From the NCBI GenBank assembly GCA_000165345.1, contig CM000430.1, forward strand, positions 512,001-576,000: 64,000 nucleotides of DNA. The letters are read 5' to 3'. Shown piece by piece: positions 16,824-57,700 of the stretch. The notes beneath the pieces are model-generated. The model was not told the DNA's origin, made no database searches, and saw only the letters and a list, made by a program, of their open reading frames with translations. The number at the start of each line of letters is the position of its first letter. Positions within the stretch are counted from its first letter, which is position 1. A program made the translations under genes and the position numbers.

Positions 16824-19800
16824 TTAAATGATTATTATAGTCGAGTTTTGAGAATAATTTCCTTGGTTAAACCCATCGTGAACTATGCTAGATCCTTCAA
16901 TATCAACATTATACTCCTTTGATCTAAGACTTATTGTGCCAAGAACGCCTTCTTGCCTAAGGGTTAGTTGGGTAACAACATCATAATTGGAATAATTTTT
17001 TAAGGGGAACTGACGCTTCCCTACAGTAACTCTATCTGGATAAATGGTAATTATTTCATTAGAAATAATATCAAATACTTGGTTATTATAGTAGAATTTA
17101 CCATTATTAACTTTGTATATAATACCATTAATGTTAACTTCTTGTATTGATCCTGGATTGTGAGATAACTTTACTACAACTTCTGTGAGAGAGGACTGAT
17201 AAGTTGTAATTAATCCGTATTCTCCAATAGAATTACAGCTACAAACTATTTTTCCCTGTTTGAATTTAGTTTCACAGCCATTTTGATACCAAGAACCATC
17301 TTTTCCCTTATATGTGCATTGGTAGCTTAAACGCTTACCCAAAACAACACTAGGAGTGTATTCTGGGCTAACAATAAAACTGATTTTGTTCTCAATCCCG
17401 TAAAGACGATATTCATAGCCGCATTTAGATATAAATACGTCATACACTTTTTGAAATACTCCATTAAAGCTTTTATCTTGCTGAATTTTATTGGCTAATT
17501 CAAAAAGATAATTATACAATGGAGGTTTAATAATAGTAAGGCCATATCTAGGATCATGGCAGTTAACGAATAAATTTCTTCCCCAAAATTCTTGGTAGTC
17601 AACATTCTCATGATGTAACTTAAAGTATATGTTCTTTATCAACGAAATATCAATATTTTCAAGTTTTTCATTACTAAGGTCAAGAGTAGGAATAACTAGT
17701 TCATTTCCAATAGCTGCACCGCTATGTAAATCTAAATTAGAAAATATTGAACTTTGAATTGATAATTTTGTCATTTTCCCCTTAATTTCTATCTGGCTAC
17801 CAAAGTCATTATTCATTGCCCATTGGTTAACTGAAAATGCTCCGAACAAATTAGTATCAGCTTCAATATTATTAAGTAGTCTTAATTCAACCAAGAAATC
17901 TAAAATATCTACAATAAGATTTTTAAAACCTTCAAAATATCCACATTCAGCCTTTAGTGCAATTCTAAATAACCTTTCAGGGTCAAACGAATGATCTGGT
18001 AATGTTTTATCAAAATTCATATAGCTAAATTCAAATAATCTCCAAAAAATGTATAGAATCATTGCTGAATTTCCTCCTGTTGTATCTTTATTATTAGGAT
18101 CTATTTCAATTAGTTTCTCTTGAAATTTTTTAATCTGATCTATCGTTAGGAAATCTAATTTCGCGGATAAGATCGATGCAATCATAAGTCTATCATTTAA
18201 AGTGCCAATTTTTTGATAGTTCAAAAAATATTCTAATAAATTAGAGTACTCTTCTTTAAGTTCATCTTCTTTCAGAAAAGCTTGCCCTACTTCCAAGATT
18301 TTCTTTGACTTTTGAAAAACGAAATAATTGCATTTTGAACTTGAGTTTTTTACGCAAAACATATTTCTTAAGTGTTTGTCAATCGCATCATTACTGAATT
18401 CTGAACAGTCTATCCCACAAAGTAACTCATTATCTTGGTTATGAATAATTAGATGTATTTTCCAAGATTCATAATTTGTGGGTAATCTTAAATATTGTGG
18501 AATATTTGATGTTAAAAAGGATAGTAGTAGCGCATTACTTTTGAATTTGTTATTTTGCTCATTATCTAAGCCATTTTCACTAACTGTTGCCAGTATTGAA
18601 TATTTCCAATTACTCATCCCAGCCAAGTTTGAAATCTTAAAGTTAATGGGAATTATTTCTCTAGGTCCTTTATTCTCAGTTGTCCCTTTAATTTTTATTA
18701 ACGAAAAATCGTGTTCAAAGAATAGATCCTCCCATACGTATGACACATAATCTCCAGAAGAAGCTAGATTATGAATATTGCTTCTTTTTACAATAATGTT
18801 CAATTTATTTTGATTTATTATTTCGTTAGAATTTTGCTTTATAACTAAAAGTATAACAGAAAGCCTGCCATCTCTTGGGTTGACATCGGTTTCAGTAATA
18901 TTTAATTTAATTGAAACAGCTATTAGATCATTTTGAATTGCTTGATCTTTTAAATTGTAAACACTGGGAGTAGTTTTTAATTGAACATATCCTGTGTTTT
19001 CAAAATAAGCGAAGGAAAGGAATTTAAGTCCTTGTACATTATCCCATTCATTCCCTCCAATGAATTTTATCTTTGCCAAGAGCAAACTCTCAGAGGCTTT
19101 AGAAATTATACTTGGAATCTTGTGCGGAATAATTTGTAGTGGTAATTCTTTATTAACCATAGAAAGATAGAAGTGCTTACACTCTATTGCATCTATAATT
19201 TTACTCTTTATTCCCACTGCAATGACCATATGGGTTAAACTTTCTTGTGGTATTAGACTAAGCTCAGTGTGGGTGGCATTACCTGAAAGTGTCGCATTTG
19301 ACTGTTGAAATGAACATGCTTGACCCCAATAGGATCCATCTGTTCTACATGCTGCTAATAGCCCTGTTGTAAGATCCTCAATTTGATTTTCATCTGAAGT
19401 TGCAGAGCAGTAGTATCGGATTTCTTGATCTTGAAATTGGAAATCAGCCTGATAACTTCTTGAAGCTCTACAAGAGGAACAACCCGTTTTGATAGAATCA
19501 CAATATCCACTCTGAGAAACAATCTGGTCGATAGTTTTAGAAGTACCAGTTTCAATTGTTATTTTTGGATGATTTTTTGAAACTATCGATGAAAAATAAG
19601 CATTAATACTTGGTTGGATTGTTTCGTTATGAAAAATTACCTTATCTTTCGAAGAAGCAAATGAGTTTTTAGTGGATACTTTGGTAACATTTATCATTGA
19701 TATTGGTTGTTCTAAGATATTTATGTCTAAGTTTTTTCTTGAAGTAGATTTTATGCAATCAAATGACCCACCTTTAATATATTCTTCATTCGTAATTGAA

Positions 19801-22800
19801 ATCCTACAGCTACCAATTGATGACAGTAATTCTGGGTTGAAGAAACTATCTTTACTAATTCCAAGGCCTTCGCTCATTTCGAATTCAATGCTTTTTAAAT
19901 AATTACTTGAGAAATAGTTATTCAAAAATGGAGGACAGTTTTCTAAAGAATTATATGGTATAGAATATGGAATAACGTGCTCAATAATAGATGATACTGG
20001 AACTTTTGATTTAGTTAATGCTCCAGGAAAATTGATTAGTTTGCTGGGAATATATGTTGTAGATAACTCCCCCATTTCAGAGGCTTGTTCCTTTGTGCTA
20101 GTTTCTATTGATGTAATAATATCAAAAGTAGAATATCCAAATAAATCAGGCAAATTGTTTCCTAGCCCTAATCTACTTAATTCGAGAGTTACGTTCAATA
20201 AAACTGTTACTCCAGCTACTCCATTTATTTGAGGAAGTTCATCTTGTTGATTTAGCGGTCTCCAAAATGATTGTTTTGTTGGAAGAACTGTTCTTTGAAT
20301 AATATTCGGCTTTACATAATATGTTAAATTTATGTTTTGTCCTAGTCTTGAAAAAGAGTAATCCATATATTGAAGTTCATTTTCAAATTTCGTACAAAAT
20401 TCTAAGCTTGAGTATGCAGAGTTTGGAATTATACATTTGAAATTCAGAGATAAGCTTTCATCTGGAACAAAATCAGGAATGTTTTTTAGCTGAATAATAA
20501 TTGGAAGGAAGTCATTACAATAGGTGGATAATTTAGGATTTGAAATTAACATATATGGTTGAAGTATATTGGGCCTAGATTTAGAAAATAATGGCTTAAG
20601 GTCTTTATCTGATAAAGTTGGGATATATGGAATTGGCTTTCCTTTTAAGCCGTAATATGTAATTGCAGAACAACCACACTTGAACTCAATTGTTTGGTTT
20701 GTGAAATGTTTAACCCTCTCTGTAGTGCATAGTTCATCTGAAAGTTCGGATTGATCTTGTTTCATTGCTGTACATTTTACTTCTGAATAATCCAGTTCTT
20801 CTTTATATTCTGCAAAGAAAGAAAGTTCAACATTATTTTCTAAATTCCAAATTTCATATTCCAAAGTGCATAATACGAAAGAAGTAAATGCCAGAGGAAA
20901 TTCTTCAATGTTTTCTAGGCTTTTTGTCACCAAGTAGTTACTAAGGTATCCGCCTGTTCTTATCACAGTTATTGTGTTAAAACTTTTCGCACAAAAATTA
21001 AAACCTTCAATTGCCAAGTTATTTTCATATAGTTTTTTGTTAACTCTGTAGTAAACTCCGTTATGGAATAGTATATCTTCGGGTTTGATACTTTTCATGT
21101 CAATTTTTGGGAAAGATATCCCACCTACTTTGACGCCTTTGTTCATATCGACTTGATTAAAGGTACTACTAAATACAATATTACCAGTCTTTTCAGTAAT
21201 TATGGAGTAGGTATCTTGAACTCCATGAGTATAGCTCTTTCTAGAAGCTACACCTTGGTAAATACTTAACAAAATTTTCAAATTTTCAGGGGATAACTCT
21301 GGAAGTGGGTTTGTAGCACCAATTAGATCTGTAGAATTTAAAACAAGGTTATCAAGTCCGTTAACTAAAAAGCACTCAACCAAAGTGTATATCCTTTGTA
21401 TTGAATTGAATGGTAGTGAAGTTTTAATATCAAGCCTTTCTCTATAGTAATGCTTGCTCAAGATTCTGTTTATTACAGCTAATGTTGTTGGTTGTGCAAA
21501 CGGATAGTCTTGGTTGAAAGATATATTATGTGAATCTATTGCAGTTTCATATATTAGCTGAAAATATTTTCCCCATACAAGTTCAAAAGTGGCTGGAAGA
21601 GAAAAAATGGCATTAACAAGGCTCATTGTATCGACATAAGAAAGATAAGAAATTGGATTTGTAACAACAGCTATTGCATCTTCTATTTGCGATTCAGAAA
21701 TGTCTGGTGATGTGGTCACAACTGTGTAGTTGCAAAGATTATAATCAAAAGGGTTATTTTCGACGAATTTGGGTAAACACCATTCGGCATAAGGACTTCT
21801 ACTCATATCTCCTTCACATTCCACAAAACAGCCCTGATCCCACTTATCCGCAGTTCTAGTAAATACGTACCATTTTGAATGGGTAGGGGGCAACCTAAGA
21901 CCAAATCTATTATGCTGGCCAGACAATACCATTTCAAAAATCTGGCTATCTGGGCTAAATACAGGTTTATTCAAAGCGATAGCAGAAAATAAAAATGGTG
22001 TTATTGTGAAGTTGTAATGATGGGTTACATTCACAGGGGTGTATAACGCATCAGATATTGATGTTTTACCAGGATGTGGTTCCAGAATATTCGAACTCTT
22101 AGCTAGAAATCCATTATTTACAAAGATCCATTGCGCATATTCATGCATACCTTCATCTGACCTATATACTCTGGGGTTTAGTTTCTCATATTCGTTCAAA
22201 CTTACAGCTTTTAATAGTTCAATGTTATTCTTCTCTACAATATCATTCACAAATATGAATGCCCTTAATACACAGTAAGTTGGACTTCCATAAAACTTAG
22301 ATAATACAAATGGAGGAATTTTCACAGATCCCCCAACTTTTCCACCAGAAATAAGCACATCTCCAAGCAATACACTTTCTGGCATTACTATCAAATCAAT
22401 ATTCTCAATTTCAGGGCACATTAGCCAAGATCGCAGTTTTAGTTGGGAGTTTTCAGTCCAAGTGTTATCGGGATAAACATCCATATAAAACTGATAAGAA
22501 AAGTTTCTGCTCATAAAAATCCCTGGGAGGATTCCTCCTGCATATGGGTCTGTATATGGTGTGATTTGGGTTAGTTGAATGGGCTGATAAATATCGGTGA
22601 CGATTGTGTAATAGTGCTGGAAATAATAATAAGTATTCATTGGAGAGCAACATGTATCATTTGAAAGAGTATTGTATATGAACATAGTATTGGTGTGATA
22701 TTCTCCTGCTTTAAACGTAAACTCTGTTGTATTCAATCCAACAGGAATCCATCTATCTGGAACAGATTTTAAGCATGATTGGAACCCACTGGCAATTTGA

Positions 22801-24662
22801 GCAGGAATATCTTCTTCAAAATTACCATAATAAAATTTTAGTGCAATCATTCTTGAATTAGGGATTACTGTTAAATTTGAAGCACAGAATTCTGTAAAAT
22901 TCATTTGATCAATGATTTCTGTCTTCCAGGGAATCACCCTAGGGTTTGAGCAAATCCAACAACCATTTGGTTCCGAGCAATGGCCAAATCTATCTTGCAT
23001 ATATTGAAAATTAAAATTAAAGAAAGGGTCTCCTGCTTTTAGATCTCTGCCAGAGTATTGTACAAAAGGAACGTTAAGCCTTGGAGAAGGAGATGTTAGT
23101 TGTAATCCAGGGGTTGCCCCAAATATGTGAAATGATGGATATGCCCCCAAAAATTCAACATTTGAATTGAAATCAAAAATTGAAGATGAATCTGAAGAAC
23201 TTTGTACGCCGTATTGAAGTATTGACGTAATCATAGTTTGCATATTACTAACACCATATTGAAGAAATTCCAGTGGGGGAGGATAAAATGCAGTCTTATA
23301 TACATCTGAAATGCTTGCAGATTGAGTTGAACAGATTGTATTTGCGAATCCCGAGTTTGTTGAGCTCGGAACAAGTGGGAAGGTTCCATTAAAATAACAA
23401 CCGCCATAGTAGTTACCTGTTTCTATCCATTGCGAATTTGGAGATCCAACAGGAAAACCCTGCTCATACCAATTTGCGCCAAATGGGATCTTATTCCAGT
23501 AAGATTGGACAGCTACAGTATTTCTAAATATTTTTGATGAGTCTTTGTTAAACAAAGATTCAAGATTCCTAGGATAATTTTTGATGGAACCATCTGGTTC
23601 TTCATTGGTTGGATAGTAAAAGTCATAGTTACTTGTGCAAACGATTTCGGAGCCAGGTATTCTAGAAGGAGGCACTATTCTTACAAAGGGGCTCGTAATT
23701 GGGATATTTATATTGCCCCAGGCAACAAATCCAGCATGCTTACCTGGCTCTGTATATGTAGTATACAAAACGCCATTTGAAAACTTATCATTAGGAACTA
23801 ACATGGGGAAAAACCCTCCGAATCCAGCGGGGGGCGTCCAGAAAGATGACAATCCTGAGCTCTGCTTTGAAAATTCATAGCTTAGGGTGATATTTGCAGA
23901 GAATTCAATTACAGGAATGTCGGTTCCATGAGAATTTGTGCCAGGAACAACTTCAGAATAATCTACACTAATTTTAAATGGGAATGATGTTGCCTTAAAT
24001 AAATATGTAGAAATTCCAACTTTATCCATAACGTCTTCTCCAAATATTGTGGGATCAAACTGGTACTTAACATCCCTATCCATTATTTGGGGAATCTTAT
24101 CTGGAAGTTGTTCATTAAATTCTTTAACAATATTCACGAGTTTCGATCCTTCTAACCAAATTGTAATATTGTTTGCTCCATTAAATATTGTATACGTAGT
24201 TTCACTTTCCATCAGAGCTTGTGCAATATCAGTACAAGCCTTGACAACTTTTACTGTATCTACACCTAATTGGAACTTCTGTAAGCTTTTTTGTAATGAA
24301 ACTGAATCACAAATAATATTTTTAATTGGAGTCATGCCACTTTTTGGATAAGACCCAATAAACTGTATTGTTATTGGATGCATAAATTGGCATGGGCTTA
24401 CAAAATTGGTTACTTGACTATCTATAGAAAGAAAGTTACCTACTCCCGGCCCAATGAATAGAGATGCCAAATTAAATCCGATAGGGTAGTAGTAAACTCT
24501 GTCAGGCGGACCGTTCATATCTATGTTTGCATTGGCCATACCAAACATAAATATTTTAAAGCTTACGAATGAAAGCAGAAGTAAAATGAACTGCAAACAC
24601 TTTAGTCGTCTTATCTTCATCTTAAAAAACGAGGGCATCAAAAAGAATCCTATATTGTCCAT
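16824..24662 (-). CDS. Giant secreted hypothetical protein of about 2610 aa. The ORF-track start at 24689 is a GTG. The first ATG is at 24662, and the signal peptide probably begins at the ATG at 24620 (MKIRRLKCLQFILLLLSFVSFKIFMFGMANA).
   Basis: It is an uninterrupted 7.8 kb ORF with a canonical signal peptide ending in ANA. Cys is scattered. I see no TM segment or known domain. Confidence 0.75.
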   Translation of the reverse strand: MDNIGFFLMPSFFKMKIRRLKCLQFILLLLSFVSFKIFMFGMANANIDMNGPPDRVYYYPIGFNLASLFIGPGVGNFLSIDSQVTNFVSPCQFMHPITIQFIGSYPKSGMTPIKNIICDSVSLQKSLQKFQLGVDTVKVVKACTDIAQALMESETTYTIFNGANNITIWLEGSKLVNIVKEFNEQLPDKIPQIMDRDVKYQFDPTIFGEDVMDKVGISTYLFKATSFPFKISVDYSEVVPGTNSHGTDIPVIEFSANITLSYEFSKQSSGLSSFWTPPAGFGGFFPMLVPNDKFSNGVLYTTYTEPGKHAGFVAWGNINIPITSPFVRIVPPSRIPGSEIVCTSNYDFYYPTNEEPDGSIKNYPRNLESLFNKDSSKIFRNTVAVQSYWNKIPFGANWYEQGFPVGSPNSQWIETGNYYGGCYFNGTFPLVPSSTNSGFANTICSTQSASISDVYKTAFYPPPLEFLQYGVSNMQTMITSILQYGVQSSSDSSSIFDFNSNVEFLGAYPSFHIFGATPGLQLTSPSPRLNVPFVQYSGRDLKAGDPFFNFNFQYMQDRFGHCSEPNGCWICSNPRVIPWKTEIIDQMNFTEFCASNLTVIPNSRMIALKFYYGNFEEDIPAQIASGFQSCLKSVPDRWIPVGLNTTEFTFKAGEYHTNTMFIYNTLSNDTCCSPMNTYYYFQHYYTIVTDIYQPIQLTQITPYTDPYAGGILPGIFMSRNFSYQFYMDVYPDNTWTENSQLKLRSWLMCPEIENIDLIVMPESVLLGDVLISGGKVGGSVKIPPFVLSKFYGSPTYCVLRAFIFVNDIVEKNNIELLKAVSLNEYEKLNPRVYRSDEGMHEYAQWIFVNNGFLAKSSNILEPHPGKTSISDALYTPVNVTHHYNFTITPFLFSAIALNKPVFSPDSQIFEMVLSGQHNRFGLRLPPTHSKWYVFTRTADKWDQGCFVECEGDMSRSPYAEWCLPKFVENNPFDYNLCNYTVVTTSPDISESQIEDAIAVVTNPISYLSYVDTMSLVNAIFSLPATFELVWGKYFQLIYETAIDSHNISFNQDYPFAQPTTLAVINRILSKHYYRERLDIKTSLPFNSIQRIYTLVECFLVNGLDNLVLNSTDLIGATNPLPELSPENLKILLSIYQGVASRKSYTHGVQDTYSIITEKTGNIVFSSTFNQVDMNKGVKVGGISFPKIDMKSIKPEDILFHNGVYYRVNKKLYENNLAIEGFNFCAKSFNTITVIRTGGYLSNYLVTKSLENIEEFPLAFTSFVLCTLEYEIWNLENNVELSFFAEYKEELDYSEVKCTAMKQDQSELSDELCTTERVKHFTNQTIEFKCGCSAITYYGLKGKPIPYIPTLSDKDLKPLFSKSRPNILQPYMLISNPKLSTYCNDFLPIIIQLKNIPDFVPDESLSLNFKCIIPNSAYSSLEFCTKFENELQYMDYSFSRLGQNINLTYYVKPNIIQRTVLPTKQSFWRPLNQQDELPQINGVAGVTVLLNVTLELSRLGLGNNLPDLFGYSTFDIITSIETSTKEQASEMGELSTTYIPSKLINFPGALTKSKVPVSSIIEHVIPYSIPYNSLENCPPFLNNYFSSNYLKSIEFEMSEGLGISKDSFFNPELLSSIGSCRISITNEEYIKGGSFDCIKSTSRKNLDINILEQPISMINVTKVSTKNSFASSKDKVIFHNETIQPSINAYFSSIVSKNHPKITIETGTSKTIDQIVSQSGYCDSIKTGCSSCRASRSYQADFQFQDQEIRYYCSATSDENQIEDLTTGLLAACRTDGSYWGQACSFQQSNATLSGNATHTELSLIPQESLTHMVIAVGIKSKIIDAIECKHFYLSMVNKELPLQIIPHKIPSIISKASESLLLAKIKFIGGNEWDNVQGLKFLSFAYFENTGYVQLKTTPSVYNLKDQAIQNDLIAVSIKLNITETDVNPRDGRLSVILLVIKQNSNEIINQNKLNIIVKRSNIHNLASSGDYVSYVWEDLFFEHDFSLIKIKGTTENKGPREIIPINFKISNLAGMSNWKYSILATVSENGLDNEQNNKFKSNALLLSFLTSNIPQYLRLPTNYESWKIHLIIHNQDNELLCGIDCSEFSNDAIDKHLRNMFCVKNSSSKCNYFVFQKSKKILEVGQAFLKEDELKEEYSNLLEYFLNYQKIGTLNDRLMIASILSAKLDFLTIDQIKKFQEKLIEIDPNNKDTTGGNSAMILYIFWRLFEFSYMNFDKTLPDHSFDPERLFRIALKAECGYFEGFKNLIVDILDFLVELRLLNNIEADTNLFGAFSVNQWAMNNDFGSQIEIKGKMTKLSIQSSIFSNLDLHSGAAIGNELVIPTLDLSNEKLENIDISLIKNIYFKLHHENVDYQEFWGRNLFVNCHDPRYGLTIIKPPLYNYLFELANKIQQDKSFNGVFQKVYDVFISKCGYEYRLYGIENKISFIVSPEYTPSVVLGKRLSYQCTYKGKDGSWYQNGCETKFKQGKIVCSCNSIGEYGLITTYQSSLTEVVVKLSHNPGSIQEVNINGIIYKVNNGKFYYNNQVFDIISNEIITIYPDRVTVGKRQFPLKNYSNYDVVTQLTLRQEGVLGTISLRSKEYNVDIEGSSIVHDGFNQGNYSQNSTIIII

Positions 24663-25083
24663 ATTACTGGAATTATTCTCCAAAATCACCAGTATTTTAC
24701 CCCTCTATCAAGAAAGAATACCTTTAATCTCCACCACACATTTTTACACAATTATGCTACTTGACACAATAGCTGATTTTAAATAACTAAGGAAAGTTAT
24801 GGAGCCATATTAATCAATGTAAAATATGTTTGGCTAAAAAAAAATAATATGTTTATTACAATTTGAGGTGCAATATCACAATTACAATAAATTGAAGGTA
24901 AATAAAAGTTAAAATACAATAGTTTTTATAGGAACAGTGTTTCGTTATCATTATTGAAATAAGCAATGGGAATTTTTGTTATTTGTAAAAATTACGCATA
25001 TGTTTATTCTAACCTGATTTCTAAAATTATTAAGTAAAGGTAAACAATTATTTTGTTCTATAAAGAAAAATTTGATTTATGTT

Positions 25084-29164: not shown

Positions 29165-29443
29165 TTTTAGATATTGCAGAGTCAAAATTATGAATTTGAT
29201 CTATTTTTATTTACTACGGATCGTACAACATGTTCTTTAAAAACAAGTATATAGCTAATTCGCTTTTGTAAGAGTGCTATGGGCGTTTGAATAGACGCTA
29301 TTCGTAGATTATTACAATAAGAGGATGATCAGTTTAACAATTTATTAAGGAGCCAATCAATCACAATATTTTGAGGAAGTTTTTGAATAATTATTGCAGC
29401 ATTGCATTGCTCTAAAAATGGAGTACAGCAATAAAGGGGTGTT

Positions 29444-29457
29444 GGGCGCCAAAAAAA
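29444..29457. promoter_or_regulatory. GGGCGCCAAAAAAA E2F-like motif about 110 bp upstream of the ATG at 29558.
   Basis: Read directly from the sequence. Confidence 0.4.
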
Positions 29458-29557
29458 CATGCACCCTTCGAATGTTTTTGCTAATAAAAGAAGAGGCTTT
29501 AGAGAATTAAAGATCATAGCTTCTTAACAGTCAATGCTGAAGTTTTAGTTTGAAAGT

Positions 29558-30115
29558 ATGTATGAATGCACAGACATATGTTCACAGAGGGAAGTAAGAC
29601 TTTCAATCTTCCCAGAAAAATATCCAGAGAAGAGGAAAATTTCTGAGGAAATACAAACTGAAAATATAGAACTTCAAACAGATTGGAGCACGAAATGTTG
29701 TTGTACTTCAAGAGTAAAGTTTTCAGATACGGACATTCAGGAGGATGCCACTATAGAGGGTGAGGGTAACTCAGGGGGACAAATAATCGATGAGATAGCA
29801 AACGTTATTTCAAATTATAGAAGAGATAGTGTCTTGAATACCATCTCAGAATTTGAAAAAAAATTGTTAACAATTGGAATGGCTGAAGAATTAAGCCCAG
29901 AAAACAGTGATACTGAAGGTAGTGAATATGGAGAGTTAAATATAAGAAGGCATTCTGAGCTGGCTTTTAAACCTTTGGTTTTAAGTGCCGTGGAAAATAG
30001 AAGAGCTACAGCTCCTGATAATATGAAAAGAAAAATTATTGATCAACTAAAAATACAAATAAATGAAGATAATACTGAAGAGTTAAGATCTAACCAAATA
30101 CCACCAAATAACTAA
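29558..30115 (+). CDS. Small acidic hypothetical protein of 185 aa.
   Basis: It has an ATG start, is rich in E/D/S, and has no motifs. It could belong to a larger unmodelled gene. Confidence 0.35.
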   Translation: MYECTDICSQREVRLSIFPEKYPEKRKISEEIQTENIELQTDWSTKCCCTSRVKFSDTDIQEDATIEGEGNSGGQIIDEIANVISNYRRDSVLNTISEFEKKLLTIGMAEELSPENSDTEGSEYGELNIRRHSELAFKPLVLSAVENRRATAPDNMKRKIIDQLKIQINEDNTEELRSNQIPPNN

Positions 30116-30688
30116 ATTAAATGTAAATTTTTTAAAATCATTAACTTCGAACAAAAAAAAAATCATCGTGGTATTGATGGAATTTCTTGAAGAATTTTGA
30201 GAACAGTGAGCTCCGGGTATATTTTTTCAGTTGTAATACATCTAAGTGCGTTCAAATAAAAACATAGATTGATTAGGAAACACGAAGAATAGAATATTCC
30301 TTGTTTTTTTTCAAAAATTATTAATTGTGAAATTTGGATTATTTTTGTCTTTGAAAACTCATAAAATATGAACTTAAATAAATAGATTTCTGAGTATTTT
30401 GTCGATTATTTTCGAGATTGGAACTTAGTTTTTAATATTTAAGCGAAATAAATTTTGGCAATAAATAGTATTTAAAGACTATTAAGGTTCAAAGTTTCAT
30501 TTTGGCTATTTACTTTTTATATTTTATGATAGAAAGTAGGTCTAAGGAGTTAATATGGGACATTTTCTTCTTTTTTAATGCAAAGTAAAAATATTCCGTA
30601 TCTGTTTTTTTTATTACATTTTCAAAATATATTTACATATAGGCGCCGGTTAACTGCATTGCATTTAAGGTTTAAACAAAAAAAATTA

Positions 30689-51900: not shown

Positions 51901-52410
51901 GATTATTACGCTGTTTCTGTTCTTGTTATTATTATTAACACTTGCCTTTGATATTTTTGTACAATCGGAAGCTGATGTAGATAACGACTTTTGGGTAAAT
52001 GTTACAGCTGATACAGAGGTTGGGGAACACGATGTGGAAAGCGGAGGTAAGTTAGAAGCTAAATTTTGTATACTATTAAAATTGGAACGGATTTCCCCAC
52101 AGTTTGATTTATCTGGTTTCTTTTTCCGGTGTTGTGCATGATTTGGAGCCAAAGACGTATGACCAAGTTTGTTTGGAGATTGACCAGAAGAAATCTCAAT
52201 TCCGCATGAACTACCTATGTTGCTGCTATCCGTTTGCGTACTCTTAGCAGAATTTGAGTTGATTTTTTTGCTAGAGTGAGCTGTCCTACGCCCAGATTTT
52301 CCTGAAGCGTCTTTTTTTTCAGATATAGGGTCTAGAACTTTATCCACACTAACTAGAACAGAGCGTCTTCTCTGGTCAGCTTCTGCATTTCTTTTCCCCG
52401 TAGCTGTCAT
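48922..52410 (-). CDS. Non-canonical poly(A) polymerase or terminal nucleotidyltransferase (Cid1/Trf4/Gld2 family) of 1162 aa. It has long low-complexity flanks and a C-terminal poly-Pro tract.
   Basis: The Pol-beta NTase core is LLVFPYGSTSTGFADQFSDVDIAL (GS...DxD intact). The PAP-associated domain is VVHVVVLTKVWTRFRGLRNTLNGFPGGYAWTICVIYFFQ. The N-terminus is S/N-rich and there is a PPPPPPPPPP tract near the C-terminus. Confidence 0.75.
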   Translation of the reverse strand: MTATGKRNAEADQRRRSVLVSVDKVLDPISEKKDASGKSGRRTAHSSKKINSNSAKSTQTDSSNIGSSCGIEISSGQSPNKLGHTSLAPNHAQHRKKKPDKSNCGEIRSNFNSIQNLASNLPPLSTSCSPTSVSAVTFTQKSLSTSASDCTKISKASVNNNNKNRNSVIIENTTNHLNIGSNSLNDSNQQSKGSFSQGIAQNNTISEVQQYGQVHIPLISPIPHQFWYNHLIPQCNFGHIVPPPPDYFPDSKISLNTQKQDLILPGNISSHPQQSVNSTGIIGNNLGACAPAIFNYQIPYFQPYSLRSYEISTLNVINYLIPNKEFRLKVSSVVSDLRNWLEQSKIPLLVFPYGSTSTGFADQFSDVDIALIPKKDSFDKAKYGDAPISDIFTKPPGLILQELLGLLQSDSLDVLDALSKNKSTDSFDCMNSLNNENKLKGKGAVPLDQSAEVRKLRNPFTCIQDITSAHIPIIRMLHIHTDIVLDISIALPSTNNQEEVKDGQTSGSLCKIQKANSLPIIQSRLGILTWYARMDPRVVHVVVLTKVWTRFRGLRNTLNGFPGGYAWTICVIYFFQKIGILPVIDANEFFIKSHNASKIIFKDILEDLNSDHIQSRCKSSENNLTLTSIKGNYKKGKGDIYLQNGIEKIEGIPEESYLDGNFPSLVSELDQEETVNYKDDIEDVTNVSYDTETASGSAGVAEQASSSDSSFDSEPDKGSIEKDGVGYKMLYLDVVKGSKFQYKSDLDEVKGGRAAKLSVKNRYSISKDVHSEKTLLNVKNLNLDKPPEEHEAFGESSRSSIGSTACTYSLSPGILSSDNICINCSDSKYSCACSESNMASVASVGYSIDTGYKNGTKQSESNANKEYGNCFLADIKGYNTHSNGKVTSDKEKNEECGPNSVRDIFDIDELFSDPPTLINNVKIFEESKFLKFSQSHTLFYRFLKFIETHLWTTVIDISSPDIINTTIPGICCDIRNPFPGPPACRPIFDENNKKHLRNEIQRAIQIIQSPFGDYSSICGGYLNISAECSKGPFTGTSGIGSGILGVGLGLPLSPSNVNAAKQRIPSNQYFGPFEAPPLHIIGYNPVISGCDQNNSNTIFPGQVPVANLYTDSPPHLILPSVSTPLHIPPPPPPPPPKIKQSSSILGVIRGNSFESIKHANST

Positions 52411-52800
52411 TGACTCCCCGACCGACCGTCAAAGAATTAACAAAGGCTAAACTAGGGTATTAAAAGAGTTGAATACCTTTGTCAGTGCCCGTCTCTAGCC
52501 ACAACAGTTAGGAATCCAACTTACTCAATTTATATTGCTCCGTGTCTACGTTTTGAGAGACAAACACTCTCTCGAACTTTAGTCAACTCTAACTCTCAAG
52601 TAGCTTCTGACTGTTCTTTTCTTATTGCAACAGCCACTGCATTATTCGAGGGCCTATGCACTTCTTTTCGTGCTTAAAAATTTGAATATACTTGCAAATT
52701 TTAGTTCGCAAAATTAGACTCAAGGTTTACCGCCATCGACGCGCCTTCAGTGCCTAGACCCGCCTTGATTTGAATTAACACGTAAATGTTGATATTAATT
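52411..52800. other. GC-enriched non-coding island of ~40-45% GC and about 390 bp in the divergent promoter. It is a candidate 5' UTR or a ncRNA.
   Basis: It contains no ORF. Its composition is clearly above the AT-rich intergenic norm. It carries a GACGCGCC motif at ~52738. No snRNA or tRNA signatures were recognised. Confidence 0.3.
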
Positions 52801-53147
52801 TCAAATTGTTAATACCGCAATAGACGCAAATAGAAGATGGACATTAATTTCTCGAGAATAAATATGAGTCAACTTAGCTAGAATAATAGTACTTAAGCAC
52901 ACTAGGAGGTGAGGTATTCACAGCTTAATACGAGCTATTTTTCATTGCAATTATTTGGGAATTTTATTCTGGAAAGTATTGCATGCATACAATACCTTTA
53001 ATGGTGCAAGAATTTTTTTACTAGATGATATTCAATGTTTGGATTCTGTCGATATTTTTGTGAGAATAATTCTTGTTAAGCTATCCAAATTAATATATGC
53101 GAACATATTAATTCGTATTAATTACTTGCCTTGTTAGACGACTGAAT

Positions 53148-54669
53148 ATGCGTAAAATAGCTATTTTCAACCCTTCGAGATTCTTTGACTTGGAAAATAC
53201 AGTTTCTGTTTTTAAATATGGCTCTACTATACGCTCTAATGTTGTAAGTTTTGAACCTTTTATATCTTGATTTTGTCATTTATTGTAAAATCCACTCCAA
53301 TCAGGCTTTTAACACAAGAATGCATGACTTCATTGTAGTGATTGATGGAGGTTTAGAAAAAGCTATAAAATGGCACCAAATGATGATGACTGATTATCCA
53401 TATCACTATTCTAGGATTTCCATATTTGGCCCTAAATATATATCAAAATTTCAGAGGTTCTCAAAACTGTGTCCCATATTTTACAATTCGTGCGTTATCG
53501 CCAACGAAAAAAAGGCAAGTTAATTTTAAGTAAATATGATCGTTAAATATATTTAACTATATTAATTTAGGTAATTAAATACGGCGTAATTTCAAAGGAC
53601 GATTTGGCCAATGCACTCACTAATTGGACGTCACCATTTGTTTTGAATAGATTTCAAAAAATGGTAAGTTAATATTATCATGACCCATGTTTGATAGGCT
53701 GTTTTCAAAGCAATTCGACTCTAGATTTTCCCAGTAGGAGTCATAGATACCTATTTACAGTCATTAATTTTACAATGCGATGCACAAACAGCAAGGCTTT
53801 TTTTACTAAGTTTATGTGAAGATGATATATTTGACAGAATTGAATGCGACCATAATCTAGAAAATTCATCAATCAATTTTAAAAATCAGGAAAGAAAAGT
53901 TTCACTGCTAGAATTTCTACGTAAAATTGTAAACTCTTCATACGCAGGTGACATACGCTTCTTATTTAATGACAACAGTATAAAATTATCTGAAAATGAA
54001 TTATATGATTCATTACCTTTTTTAACGGCTAGATACCTCCCCTTTATTATTAATTACTTCCAGAATAATAAATCCGGATTTGCAATAGAAGGTGCTAACT
54101 TAAGTACTTTAAATGAACTTTACAAATTAGCAAAATCAATTACCGACAGAATGGCATTCAATTTAATGAAAAACCCGATGTCTGGAATGAATAGCGAGTT
54201 TTGTGTTTCTGAAGATTGGAACTTGTTTATAAAATTATTTTTCAATGAAAAGATAACGCTTAAGGTACGTGTAATGAAATTTTTATTACTATTTATTGCC
54301 TTTAGATAAATCCAAGCAGAGAATGGAGAGCTAATGAATTTTTACAGCTTCCAAACGAGTTTAAAAGTAGAGCAAGCAGAATAGCTGCAAGAAAAAGACT
54401 TTTGAAACTACTACCAATTAATATATTATTTAGTAAATACATTTATTCTTTACACCATTCCGCCTTGCCTTGGAGCCCTAATGTTATTGATGAAACTATA
54501 AGAAGATATAATTTTAAGTGTTCTTTGTTGAGCGTCTTAAAAAATATATTATCTAATTTTGGAAGAATCGTAAGTTACTCATTACTTTGAAAATGATTTT
54601 TTAATTTCTAATATTTAGACCTTCTATATTAAATATAAGCTAAACCAAACAGTAAAACATCTAGATTAA
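53148..54669 (+). CDS. Previously unmodelled 6-exon gene encoding a hypothetical helical protein of about 417 aa. Exons are 53148..53243, 53305..53514, 53571..53663, 53725..54264, 54306..54569 and 54619..54669. Introns are 61, 56 (GC-AG), 61, 41 and 49 nt.
   Basis: Every exon is a multiple of 3 and every intron is phase 0. Donors are GTAAGT, GCAAGT, GTAAGT, GTACGT and GTAAGT; acceptors are CAG or TAG. Each exon frame hits a stop inside the next intron, and the frame reopens immediately after the acceptor. The ORF-track fragments 53251-53523 and 54402-54590 are exons 2 and 5. The join of exons 1-2 to exons 3-6 rests on a non-canonical GC donor and is the weakest link. Confidence 0.5.
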
Positions 54670-54715
54670 TGATTGAAGGGATAATATTACTTCATTTAAC
54701 TAATAATTTAATTGC

Positions 54716-57700
54716 TTAATCGACTGAAATATTCTGACCCTTGCCAATATCCTGATCAAATTCTTTTTCAAAGAAATTGGCGCCTGCTAGAGAGCTGCCT
54801 TCATGTGAGTCATATTCGACACTTCTGGAATATGCAGAGTTATATCCCAAATTTTCTTTTTGCGCATTTAATATTACGGTAGCTGGCTGAGAATATCTCC
54901 GCAAGTCTAGAGTCATAGTAGAACTTGTCTGCATTTCTCTATTTTTGTAAACGCCAATAAGTGTATCTGCCTGGGAAAAAAGTCTATCTTTAAGAGAAAT
55001 AACAATTGATTGAAATGAAGCTTTTTTCAGGAATTTGGCTATGGACTGTACATTACGAGGATCAAGAGCCGCATCCACTTCATCTAGTACGAAAAAAGGA
55101 GATGGATGATAACTTTGCATTGCAAAAAGTAGTGCTAACGCAGCCATTGTTTTCTCGCCTCCGCTAAGTTGCTGTATGTCTCGGAAACGTTTAGATGGAG
55201 GCATTGCATGAAAAATGACACCACATGAAAAAGGCTCTTCCAAGTTAGTATCGTCCAAATCTAAAAATGCTTGACCGCCAATATTAGAGTCATCGCATGT
55301 CAGTCTTGAATAAAAATCTCCGACTGCCTCTTTTACAGCTTCGAAGCATTTCATGAATGATTCTGTCCGTCTTTTACGAAGTGATTTATACGACTTATCA
55401 ATTTCCATTGACTTTTTTCTTATATCTCTTTGATCTTCTAAGAGTGCTTCCAATTGTGCATCTATTTCTTTAAGCTTCCCTTTGGACTTCATGTTTGGGT
55501 TCAAAGACTCTAGCTTATGTGAAATGTCAGAAATATTCTTTTTAAGTCTCGAGACTTCACTTTCTATTTGTTTTAGTGATTTAGAAGAATTTTTCTGCCC
55601 TTCCGTCAATGCACTGTAGTCTATTTGAATCATTGGGGGCTCAAGATATTCAAGGTGGTTTTCACTCTTGCTTTTACCACTTGTCTCAAAAAATTCCCAA
55701 TACTTTCTAATGTCATCATATTCTCCAGAGATTAAAGGAATTTTAATGTTCTCAAATACAATATTTTTCAGTAATATAATCAGTTCACCATTAAGAGCTT
55801 CTAATTCTTCATTTTTGGAACTTCTCTCAAGCTCTTTACTTGTGCAAAGCCCTTGGAGTTCTAATAAAGCTTTCTTTTTTGCCTCTAGTTCTTTTTGGAT
55901 TTCTTTCTTAAATGATGTAATTGATTTTATTGAATTTTTAAGATTAGTTTGTTTAAATTCAATTTGTGAAACTTCTTCGTTCAATTTCTCGATTTGTTTG
56001 CATTCTTCAATAATCAAATTTTCAATACGAGCTAAGTTGGCTTCTTTTTCCTTAAATTTTTCCTTTAGTGTATTGTCTCTTTTCTTAATACTATCATATT
56101 CTTCTATGATAATATTCAGCCTGCTGGAAAGTTTCTTTCTCTTCTGTAGTTGTTCTTCATGTTTTTTTCTTGATTCGTGTTCGAGCGAAGCAATATCCTC
56201 TATATTTAGTTTTTTTGAAAGTTGTTTAAAATGCCTCTGATCAGAATCATGAATCTCGTTTCGTATATTTTCCAATTTTATGCACAAACTTTCGTATTCT
56301 GAACGGTGTTTCAATATTTCCTCCTCTCTCTCTTTGAATTGTTTTTCTAAAAGGCTTATTCCTGTACTTTTCTCATTTTTGTTTTTTTTATAAATTTCAA
56401 TTTTTAACTCTATAGCATTTTTATCAATTTTCAGTCTCTTTAAATTTTCTTTCAATCTATATAATCTTCTCTGCCCATCAGATTCTGCTTCTTCAAGCTT
56501 ACAAATTTCTTCATTTAGTGTTTCGATTTTGCTCAGTAAATTTGCATATTCCTTTGCAAAAACTTTGTTGCTCATCTGATTTCTAGAAGAGTCAGCGGAG
56601 ATATTGCCATTCTTAAGTATTTTTTCACCATCGAAAGTCATCACTTTAGGTATTATTCCCAATCTTGGAGCTTCAGTGTAAAATATTTTCTTAGCATCTT
56701 CCAGGCTTTGCGTGAAAATCACTCCAAAGAGACAAAATTCTAATACGGGAAGTATCCTTTCATCTGATGAGTGTAAATTGTCCTTAGCTAAAGACCTCAT
56801 TGATTTGTTATTATTGCATATAGCTCTTAAGTTAGCCTCCATAACTGTTGAATTGCCTCTCTTATCTAATTTGATAGAGTTCAAAGGTAGAAAATTCATT
56901 GGTTGTTTTCTATGTTGTTTTAGCCAGCAAATGCAGCTTTTAGCAGTTTCCCAAGTACTAACCACTATATATTCGCCATACTTCCCAAGTGCGGAGTCTA
57001 TAACTGAATTATATTGTTTATTATTTGAATGACACATGTCAGAAAGCCTCCCAAAAACAATGTTTTCTTCTTTCCCAATTATCATTCCAGTATTTATGTA
57101 ATTCTTCATATCTTCAATTAATTTCCTTGATTCAATTTCTTTTTGAACTTCTCCTTTTCTTGCATCTATATCCTTAATTCTTTCGTTAAATGCATATCTT
57201 TGCTCTGAAAGCTTTGCTATATTATCTGTAAAGCCATTAAAATTGGATTCCAATTCAAATATTTGAGAATTTAGCTCTAATTCAGTTTCTTTTGAGTGGC
57301 TTAGCTTTTCTTCCTGTTCATTAATTTTTGCCGAAATTGAATCTAACAAACTCCTACTAGTAGTTGATTGAATTTGAATTTCTTCATTTTCTTTTTCTAA
57401 AATTTCAATTAAACCAAGTTTATTTGCAATTTCTCGTTCTATTTGAAGTGATTGTTCTCTTAATTTAGAAGATGCTATATCTGCTTTCTTTTTGCATTCA
57501 ATGTATTCTTGTAAATCAAAAGACATTGCATCTATGAATTCAGAGGATTCTTGTATCTTCAAATCTCTCAACTCATTATTAATTGACTGCGTCTTTACCT
57601 CGTATTCTTCTATTAATTTTTTGTTTTTCTGTTCGTATGTTAGCATACTTTCCATTTGTTTTTGTAATTTTTTTAGTTCTAATTTATTGCGTTTAATACT

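Follow-up and report, generated by a model that had tools for sequence, protein, structure and literature searches.

We examined a 64,000-nucleotide (nt) stretch of Cryptosporidium parvum chromosome 2 (GenBank assembly GCA_000165345.1, contig CM000430.1, positions 512,001 to 576,000; here called the window, with coordinates counted from its first letter). The locus at 53148-54669 on the forward (+) strand of the window is very probably the C. parvum orthologue of Tam41/Mmp37 (TAMM41), a putative mitosomal cytidine diphosphate-diacylglycerol (CDP-DAG) synthase encoded by six exons and interrupted by five mini-introns. Over 1822 nt the locus shows 100% identity to CP029781.1 (GCA_031892065.1). 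Public records already cover the gene, its family, and its GC-AG intron. What is new is a likely correction of 14 codons to the reference model, and the 417-amino-acid (aa) model described here is probably the best available for the locus.

Family assignment and fold

A preliminary description of the window had joined the six exons by hand, had seen no obvious family in the product, and had proposed a profile or structure search. When such searches were run, the protein was identified as Tam41/Mmp37 (PF09139), by Pfam and also by Foldseek with a model of the Cryptosporidium felis orthologue. We found that the Pfam family PF09139 (Tam41_Mmp37, "phosphatidate cytidylyltransferase, mitochondrial") scored 90.8 bits against a cut-off of 24 (E=1.4e-25). 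The Schizosaccharomyces pombe Tam41 structures 6ig2 and 6ig4 matched the sequence at E of about 1e-16 (7e-17 for 6ig2), and a bacterial Tam41 (7ecd, Firmicutes bacterium) matched at E=7e-7. The alignment with S. pombe Tam41 is unbroken over residues 23-137, which spans the junctions of introns 1, 2, and 3, and a second aligned stretch is the SYxGDxR motif in exon 4. For the structure prediction and for the search of representative sequences, the C. felis orthologue and the public C. parvum protein QOY42957.1 stood in for the spliced C. parvum protein. The profile search covered 1.8 billion representatives and returned 1796 family members.

The C. felis orthologue is 52% identical to the C. parvum protein and has the same exon structure. 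Its AlphaFold2 model, built from an 85-sequence alignment, had a mean predicted local distance difference test score (pLDDT) of 89.7 and a predicted template modeling score (pTM) of 0.89, and in it the nucleotidyltransferase and winged-helix domains form one fold. When this model was compared with the PDB through Foldseek, the only significant matches were the Tam41 structures 7ecd, 6ig4, and 6ig2 (probability 1.00; template modeling score 0.64-0.68 when normalized to the target), and the top five matches were all Tam41.

The C. parvum protein shares with these three structures both the nucleotidyltransferase plus winged-helix fold and the motifs YGS, D, WH, HYS, KYGV, W..R..K, and SYxGDxR. 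The signature set that is kept comprises Y24-G25-S26, D40, W55-H56, H66-Y67-S68, K105-Y106-G107, W121, R129, K132, and S205-Y206-G208-D209-R211, and D40, H56, Y67, K105, Y106, W121, R129, and K132 are invariant in the family sample. Human TAMM41 binds cytidine triphosphate (CTP) through a site that includes K109, R133, and K136 (PMC8935507). The counterparts of these residues are K105, R129, and K132; the human CTP-site residues T199 and N208 have no reliable mapping onto the Cryptosporidium sequence. Near the C terminus, a basic stretch in exon 5, LPNEFKSRASRIAARKRLLKLL, carries a net charge of +7 over 33 aa in a region that is helical in the C. felis model, and Y404 and K408 in exon 6 align with the conserved C-terminal Y...K of the family. 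This basic, predicted helical C-terminal region may correspond to the membrane-binding tail described for S. pombe Tam41.

Exon-intron structure of the gene

Splicing of the six segments gives an open coding sequence of 1254 nt and a product of 417 aa. The coordinates, donors, and acceptors given in the preliminary description proved exact, as did the 417-aa product and the peptide quoted from it. All exon lengths are divisible by three and all five introns are in phase 0. Exon 1 (53148-53243, +, 96 nt) starts with ATG, encodes 32 codons (MRKIAIFNPSRFFDLENTVSVFKYGSTIRSNV), and contributes YGS, a motif of the nucleotidyltransferase domain. It is followed by intron 1 (53244-53304, +, 61 nt, GTAAGT..CAG). 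Exon 2 (53305-53514, +, 210 nt, 70 codons) encodes D40, W55-H56, and H66-Y67-S68, and its last seven codons, at 53494-53514, read VIANEKK. Intron 2 (53515-53570, +, 56 nt) is a GC-AG intron, AAG|GCAAGT..TTTAG. Exon 3 (53571-53663, +, 93 nt, 31 codons) runs from VIKYGVISKDDL to NRFQKM and includes K105-Y106, W121, R129, and K132; intron 3 (53664-53724, +, 61 nt) reads GTAAGT..CTAG. Exon 4 (53725-54264, +, 540 nt, 180 codons) holds the winged-helix domain, including the SYxGDxR motif (S205-R211), and the C-terminal helical region begins in it. Intron 4 (54265-54305, +, 41 nt, GTACGT..CCTTTAG) ends, in this model, at the proximal of two possible acceptors. Exon 5 (54306-54569, +, 264 nt, 88 codons) opens with 14 disputed codons (54306-54347, INPSREWRANEFLQ) ahead of the basic stretch. 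Intron 5 (54570-54618, +, 49 nt) reads GTAAGT..ATTTAG, and exon 6 (54619-54669, +, 51 nt) encodes 16 codons plus TAA (TFYIKYKLNQTVKHLD).

The G+C content of the five introns is 16-34%. At the local base composition the probability of a stop is 0.076 per codon, so that a stop should turn up about once in 13 codons; the 180 open codons of exon 4 alone have a chance probability of about 6e-7. An in-frame stop at 53109-53111 lies 13 codons upstream of the ATG. The preliminary description had placed an in-frame stop in every intron. This holds for introns 1, 2, 3, and 5 but not for intron 4, which has none; read-through of intron 4 (41 nt, not a multiple of three) shifts the frame and meets a stop at 54307-54309, just past the intron.

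We compared the orthologous loci of C. felis, C. meleagridis, chipmunk genotype I, C. ubiquitum, C. canis, C. muris, and C. ryanae with that of C. parvum. All of these except C. muris and C. ryanae were aligned as six intestinal species, with exon boundaries projected through the DNA alignment. The order poly(A) polymerase, Tam41, SMC1 is common to all eight species, and the five introns lie at identical positions in all eight, C. muris and C. ryanae included. The chain is open in each of the six intestinal species, with exon lengths of 96, 210, 93, 540 (537 in C. felis), and 264 (267 in C. felis and C. canis). The start ATG and the 96-nt exon 1 are kept in these six, and C. ryanae also has exon 1. 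Introns in the six species measure 41-93 nt and are not multiples of three. Exon differences between pairs of species follow codon position (0.17-0.28, 0.07-0.21, and 0.37-0.55 at positions 1, 2, and 3) and exon indels come in multiples of three only, whereas intron divergence is even (0.26-0.51) and accompanied by indels. For exon 4 the values are 0.28, 0.21, and 0.48. Intron 1, which varies from 55 to 67 nt across the six species and measures 82 nt in C. muris, lacks codon periodicity. Homology that crosses the junctions, intron positions shared by eight species, codon-position divergence, and a single compact fold support the earlier proposal of one gene with six exons and five phase-0 mini-introns. 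The five very short introns are of the U2 type, and all eight species keep this architecture under purifying selection.

The last 20 codons of exon 4 (VSEDWNLFIKLFFNEKITLK) are skipped in two public models, yet they are conserved as protein in all species. The family profile differs by at most 2.4 bits over this end of the exon, and the call rests on conservation within the genus. The most likely mature protein is the 417-aa form, which has the 7 codons before the GC donor, the 14 codons after a 41-nt intron 4, and exon 6.

The GC donor of intron 2

GC-AG introns are a minor class of U2-type spliceosomal introns. Intron 2 fits this class: it has GC at +1/+2 in an otherwise perfect consensus (AAG|GCAAGT), a normal AG acceptor, and GT-AG introns as its orthologues in sister species. 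We detected nothing unusual about it, and at just 56 nt it resembles the other short introns of the genus. The donor AAG|GCAAGT occurs in C. parvum, C. meleagridis, chipmunk genotype I, C. ubiquitum, and C. canis. At the identical position we found AAG|GTAGGT in C. felis, AAG|GTATGC in C. muris, and AAG|GTAAGT in C. ryanae. GC and GT thus interchange at one site, with GC in five species and GT in three, and the flank AAG|G.A.G. is kept.

A different donor is used in at least five public models (from C. hominis, C. meleagridis, C. tyzzeri, and the CPCDC and CPHLJ C. parvum annotations). These start intron 2 at a GT 21 nt upstream, at 53494, which would make it a canonical GT-AG intron and leave the protein without VIANEKK, a stretch missing from most public models. 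The deletion is in frame, and gene predictors assume GT donors by default. However, the upstream GT is missing in chipmunk genotype I, C. ubiquitum, C. canis, and C. felis, four of the six aligned species. By contrast, AAG|G[C/T]A.GT stands at the position of intron 2 in all six and a GT donor is found there in C. muris and C. ryanae. The VIANEKK codons are conserved as protein, and the curated CPATCC_000648 and C. felis models retain them. With a Tam41 profile made from 128 sequences, none from Cryptosporidium, the protein scored 105.0 bits with VIANEKK and 93.2 bits without it, a cost of 11.8 bits. In the C. felis model these residues fall in a beta-hairpin (strands 91-98 and 103-110) before the invariant KYGV, and their loss would cut this hairpin. 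Across the junction ..NEKK|VIKYGV.. the alignments with S. pombe Tam41 and with the family run on uninterrupted. We consider it highly improbable that the GT at 53494 is the true donor. The position of the donor in eight species, the 11.8-bit cost, and the hairpin all bear out the preliminary reading of intron 2 as GC-AG, and at the level of DNA and protein the call is well supported. The CPATCC_000648 protein keeps VIANEKK and so implies the GC donor, and the authors of that annotation report RNA-seq support for their introns (PMC8744675), which lends indirect support to the GC-AG junction. Our literature search found no statement on the rarity of GC-AG introns in Cryptosporidium.

The acceptor of intron 4

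The reference model CPATCC_000648 gives intron 4 a length of 83 nt (54265-54347), with a CAG acceptor at 54345-54347. The alternative TAG at 54303-54305 gives 41 nt. Both choices are in frame, and on the family profile the 417-aa and 403-aa forms that they yield are 2.4 bits apart. The family profile cannot discriminate between them, and the choice of acceptor rests on conservation within the genus. When the proximal site is taken, intron 4 is 41-43 nt in the six intestinal species, 63 nt in C. muris, and 62 nt in C. ryanae, and it ends at one position throughout. The 42-nt segment in dispute has no indels among the six species, 79% identity, and divergence of 0.14, 0.15, and 0.34 at codon positions 1, 2, and 3. 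The segment is also encoded in C. muris (CNNNPVWIKKTFESLP; NNPVWIKKTFES-LP) and C. ryanae (FKPNLEWKINEFEKLP; KPNLEWKINEFEK-LP), neither of which has an AG at the distal site. Within the C. parvum clade, the distal AG simply closes a Gln or Lys codon. There is a pyrimidine tract ahead of the proximal AG, and several other AGs sit between the proximal and distal sites. The C. felis model folds the disputed segment into an ordered strand and helix (pLDDT 93-96).

The reference model may nevertheless be right in using an 83-nt intron and a 403-aa protein without the 14 residues, or both acceptors may be used. Exactly these residues are omitted from QOY42957.1 and from the C. tyzzeri and C. hominis 30976 models of the same group, and Baptista et al. 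reported that introns had 100% RNA-seq support (PMC8744675), which speaks against the 417-aa form. The LP codons are preceded by an AG in all six intestinal species, in C. parvum with a CTAAT branch-like motif 13 nt upstream of it, and the family profile separates the two forms by only 2.4 bits. However, the segment has the signature of coding sequence, C. muris and C. ryanae end their introns at the proximal site, several AGs would have to be passed over to reach the distal acceptor, and the predicted structure of the 14 residues is confident. We regard this alternative as unlikely, although the distal acceptor may be used in some or most transcripts. From the DNA comparison, the evidence favors the proximal, 41-nt intron 4, and 14 conserved residues are probably missing from the curated reference model for C. 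parvum.

The 3' end of the gene

Most public models run through intron 5 and end in ..GRIVSYSLL and a stop. We found that intron 5 varies from 47 to 56 nt across species and lacks codon periodicity. Beyond it, exon 6 encodes the motif x[FY]Yx[K]YK[LI], which is conserved in all the species and seen as TFYLKYKL in C. felis, NFYVKYKI in C. ubiquitum, and TFYTKYKL in C. canis. In C. ryanae the protein ends in NYYLKYKLSA; in C. muris the match is looser (MSYFVYKISR). The first nine codons of exon 6 diverge almost only at the third position (0.12, 0.08, and 0.60). Both CPATCC_000648 and the C. felis model include exon 6.

Public models of the gene

The gene had been described as unmodelled. This was not the case: at least eight differing public models exist, and one of them, CPATCC_000648, includes both the GC donor and exon 6. 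CPATCC_000648 (QOY42957.1, IOWA-ATCC, 403 aa) is named "Mitochondrial matrix Mmp37". It is identical to our chain in exons 1-4, exon 6, the GC donor, and intron 5, and it shares four of the five introns exactly. It differs in its intron 4 acceptor, which lies 42 nt downstream, and so in the absence of the 14 residues (403 versus 417 aa). The exact 417-aa sequence is absent from a collection of 15 billion proteins. Models of 380 aa (CPCDC, CPHLJ, and CHM) are without VIANEKK, omit the 20 exon 4 residues, and continue through intron 5. Models of 386 aa represent C. tyzzeri and C. hominis 30976, and those of 400 aa represent C. hominis and C. meleagridis. The full chain is open in several species in which the annotation departs from it: C. 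ryanae, where exon 1 is missing (2314-2411 of the retrieved locus), and C. muris, where exon 6 is missing (around 4066-4098 of the retrieved locus), as well as two species in which the gene has been divided.

These divided annotations raise the question of whether the locus holds two genes, with exons 1-3 encoding a nucleotidyltransferase fragment and exons 4-6 an unrelated helical protein. C. ubiquitum is annotated with two genes of 106 and 266 aa (2355-3843 of the retrieved locus) and C. canis with two of 116 and 276 aa (2461-3936 of the retrieved locus), and the Iowa II record (XP_001388223.1) and one C. hominis record hold only fragments of 121 and 128 aa, respectively. However, homology to Tam41 carries on from exon 3 into exon 4, with the SYxGDxR motif and the winged-helix domain, and the GTAAGT and AG sites of intron 3 are conserved in phase in all species. 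The full-length C. felis protein folds as one unit. At the start of exon 4 neither a start codon nor a promoter-like spacer is conserved. A split into two genes is barely credible in light of these data. The preliminary description had itself considered that exons 1-2 might stand alone or that exon 3 might start its own transcript, but the nucleotidyltransferase and winged-helix domains span introns 1-4, which contradicts a separate gene in exons 1-2 or 1-3.

The comparison shows clearly that most public models misrepresent this gene: some split it, and others lack exon 1 or exon 6 or omit 7, 14, or 20 residues of a structured enzyme. We recommend the 417-aa form for expression, tagging, or knockout.

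Predicted function of Cryptosporidium Tam41

Tam41 is peripherally attached to the inner membrane, on its matrix face, and binds CTP between its nucleotidyltransferase and winged-helix domains. It transfers cytidine monophosphate (CMP) to phosphatidic acid to yield CDP-DAG for phosphatidylglycerol and cardiolipin, and its anchor is a basic amphipathic C-terminal helix (PMC7018664, PMC8935507, PMC11646218). Tian et al. reported that the cardiolipin synthase CLS_pld is present in C. parvum, C. hominis, and C. muris and that the enzymes of cardiolipin remodelling are all absent (PMC3378450). By analogy with the yeast and human enzymes, Cryptosporidium Tam41 would bind CTP between its two domains, transfer CMP to phosphatidic acid, and release CDP-DAG and pyrophosphate. 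It would be seated at the inner membrane of the mitosome through its basic C-terminal helix, and its CDP-DAG would feed the synthesis of phosphatidylglycerol and cardiolipin by a phospholipase D-type cardiolipin synthase. We infer a supply of CDP-DAG in the mitosome because the CTP-site residues are kept and CLS_pld has been reported in the genus.

Several points weigh against this assignment. Splicing of the six-exon chain is itself inferred from the DNA. Of 61 positions conserved in at least 80% of the family, 36 are kept and 25 are changed, which sets the protein apart from the known Tam41 enzymes. N59M, G128N, and N151C replace residues that are invariant in the family sample, and P133M, Y125F, and D117A are changed as well. 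The first conserved family position comes only about 8 residues into the protein, which, unlike the known enzymes, has no evident cleavable presequence. Our literature search found nothing specific to this gene and no localization or enzyme data on any Cryptosporidium Tam41. Judged from its residues, the catalytic competence of the protein is not certain. We would argue that the changed positions reflect divergence and are no argument against homology. Two further differences from the known enzymes are a longer helical region between the winged-helix domain and the tail (417 aa in total, against a Pfam core of about 320 positions) and the organelle itself, a mitosome without a genome. There is no N-terminal extension beyond the Tam41 domain, and the DNA 5' of the ATG is poorly conserved (58% identity, with gaps).

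One position among these has a human counterpart of medical interest. P137L in human TAMM41 is a reported disease variant (PMC8935507). The residue at the position of human Pro137 is M133 (codon 53661-53663). Pro is found there in 99% of the sampled family; the residue is Met in Cryptosporidium, with Val in C. muris and Thr in C. ryanae.

The protein could also be a relic of the Tam41 fold that does not synthesize CDP-DAG, either a noncatalytic binder of lipid or nucleotide or an enzyme with an altered substrate, in the mitosome or relocated elsewhere. This would accord with the replacement across the genus of near-invariant positions (N59, G128, N151, P133, Y125, and D117), with the lack of an evident N-terminal presequence, and with the absence of any cardiolipin-remodelling enzymes from Cryptosporidium (PMC3378450). 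However, the catalytic Asp and the Lys/Arg/Lys residues of the CTP site are retained, purifying selection across the eight species is strong, and CLS_pld, which needs a supply of phosphatidylglycerol, is present in the genus (PMC3378450). We therefore consider such a relic distinctly unlikely and favor a CDP-DAG synthase. Very unlikely, in our estimation, is that the GC donor, kept in at least five species, and the tandem in-frame acceptors of intron 4 regulate the gene: weak or alternative splicing would give isoforms without 7 or 14 residues and so adjust the output of a strongly diverged Tam41, short of its presequence and several invariant residues, whose role in the mitosome may be nonclassical.

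Specialists are unlikely to be surprised by these results. That Tam41 is kept in every species examined, together with the reported CLS_pld, suggests that the mitosome makes its own CDP-DAG, phosphatidylglycerol, and cardiolipin. Such lipid synthesis in the mitosome would be a testable and possibly druggable process.

Genomic neighborhood

The gene lies in a gap (52411-54715) flanked by two minus-strand open reading frames (ORFs) of 1162 aa and 1349 aa. The first is poly(A)-polymerase-like, and its orthologues have an MTPAP-like central domain; the second is SMC. The preliminary description had called the gap apparently empty among the listed ORFs and the locus otherwise intron-poor. Both statements were borne out, with ORF fragments of at most 90 aa in the gap and 19 single, uninterrupted ORFs of at least 200 aa that occupy most of the window. 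It had also held that five introns in one small gene stand out. A re-annotation of C. parvum found introns in 10.8% of genes, with 2-10 exons (mean 2.6) in the genes that contain them and a mean intron length of 99 nt with 22% G+C (PMC4637869). Tam41 is at the intron-rich, short-intron end of this range but still inside it.

Two other candidates for the content of the gap were rejected. An antisense gene is excluded by a longest minus-strand ORF of 53 aa, and an RNA gene was ruled out by Rfam and tRNA scans of 52300-54800, which returned sub-threshold chance matches only.

The Tam41 stop ends at 54669, and the stop of the convergent SMC1 gene is at 54716-54718 on the minus (-) strand. Because only 46 nt separate the two coding regions, the 3' untranslated regions of Tam41 and SMC1 must overlap or be extremely short. 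Elsewhere in the window, stretches of about 1.4-1.5 kb at 2881-4452, 6715-8248, and 29165-30577 are free of ORFs of at least 200 aa. They could hold small or intron-containing genes, as the Tam41 gap does. A 2621-aa ORF at 16824-24689 of the window (-) is listed with a GTG start but presumably begins at an ATG inside it or in an exon upstream.

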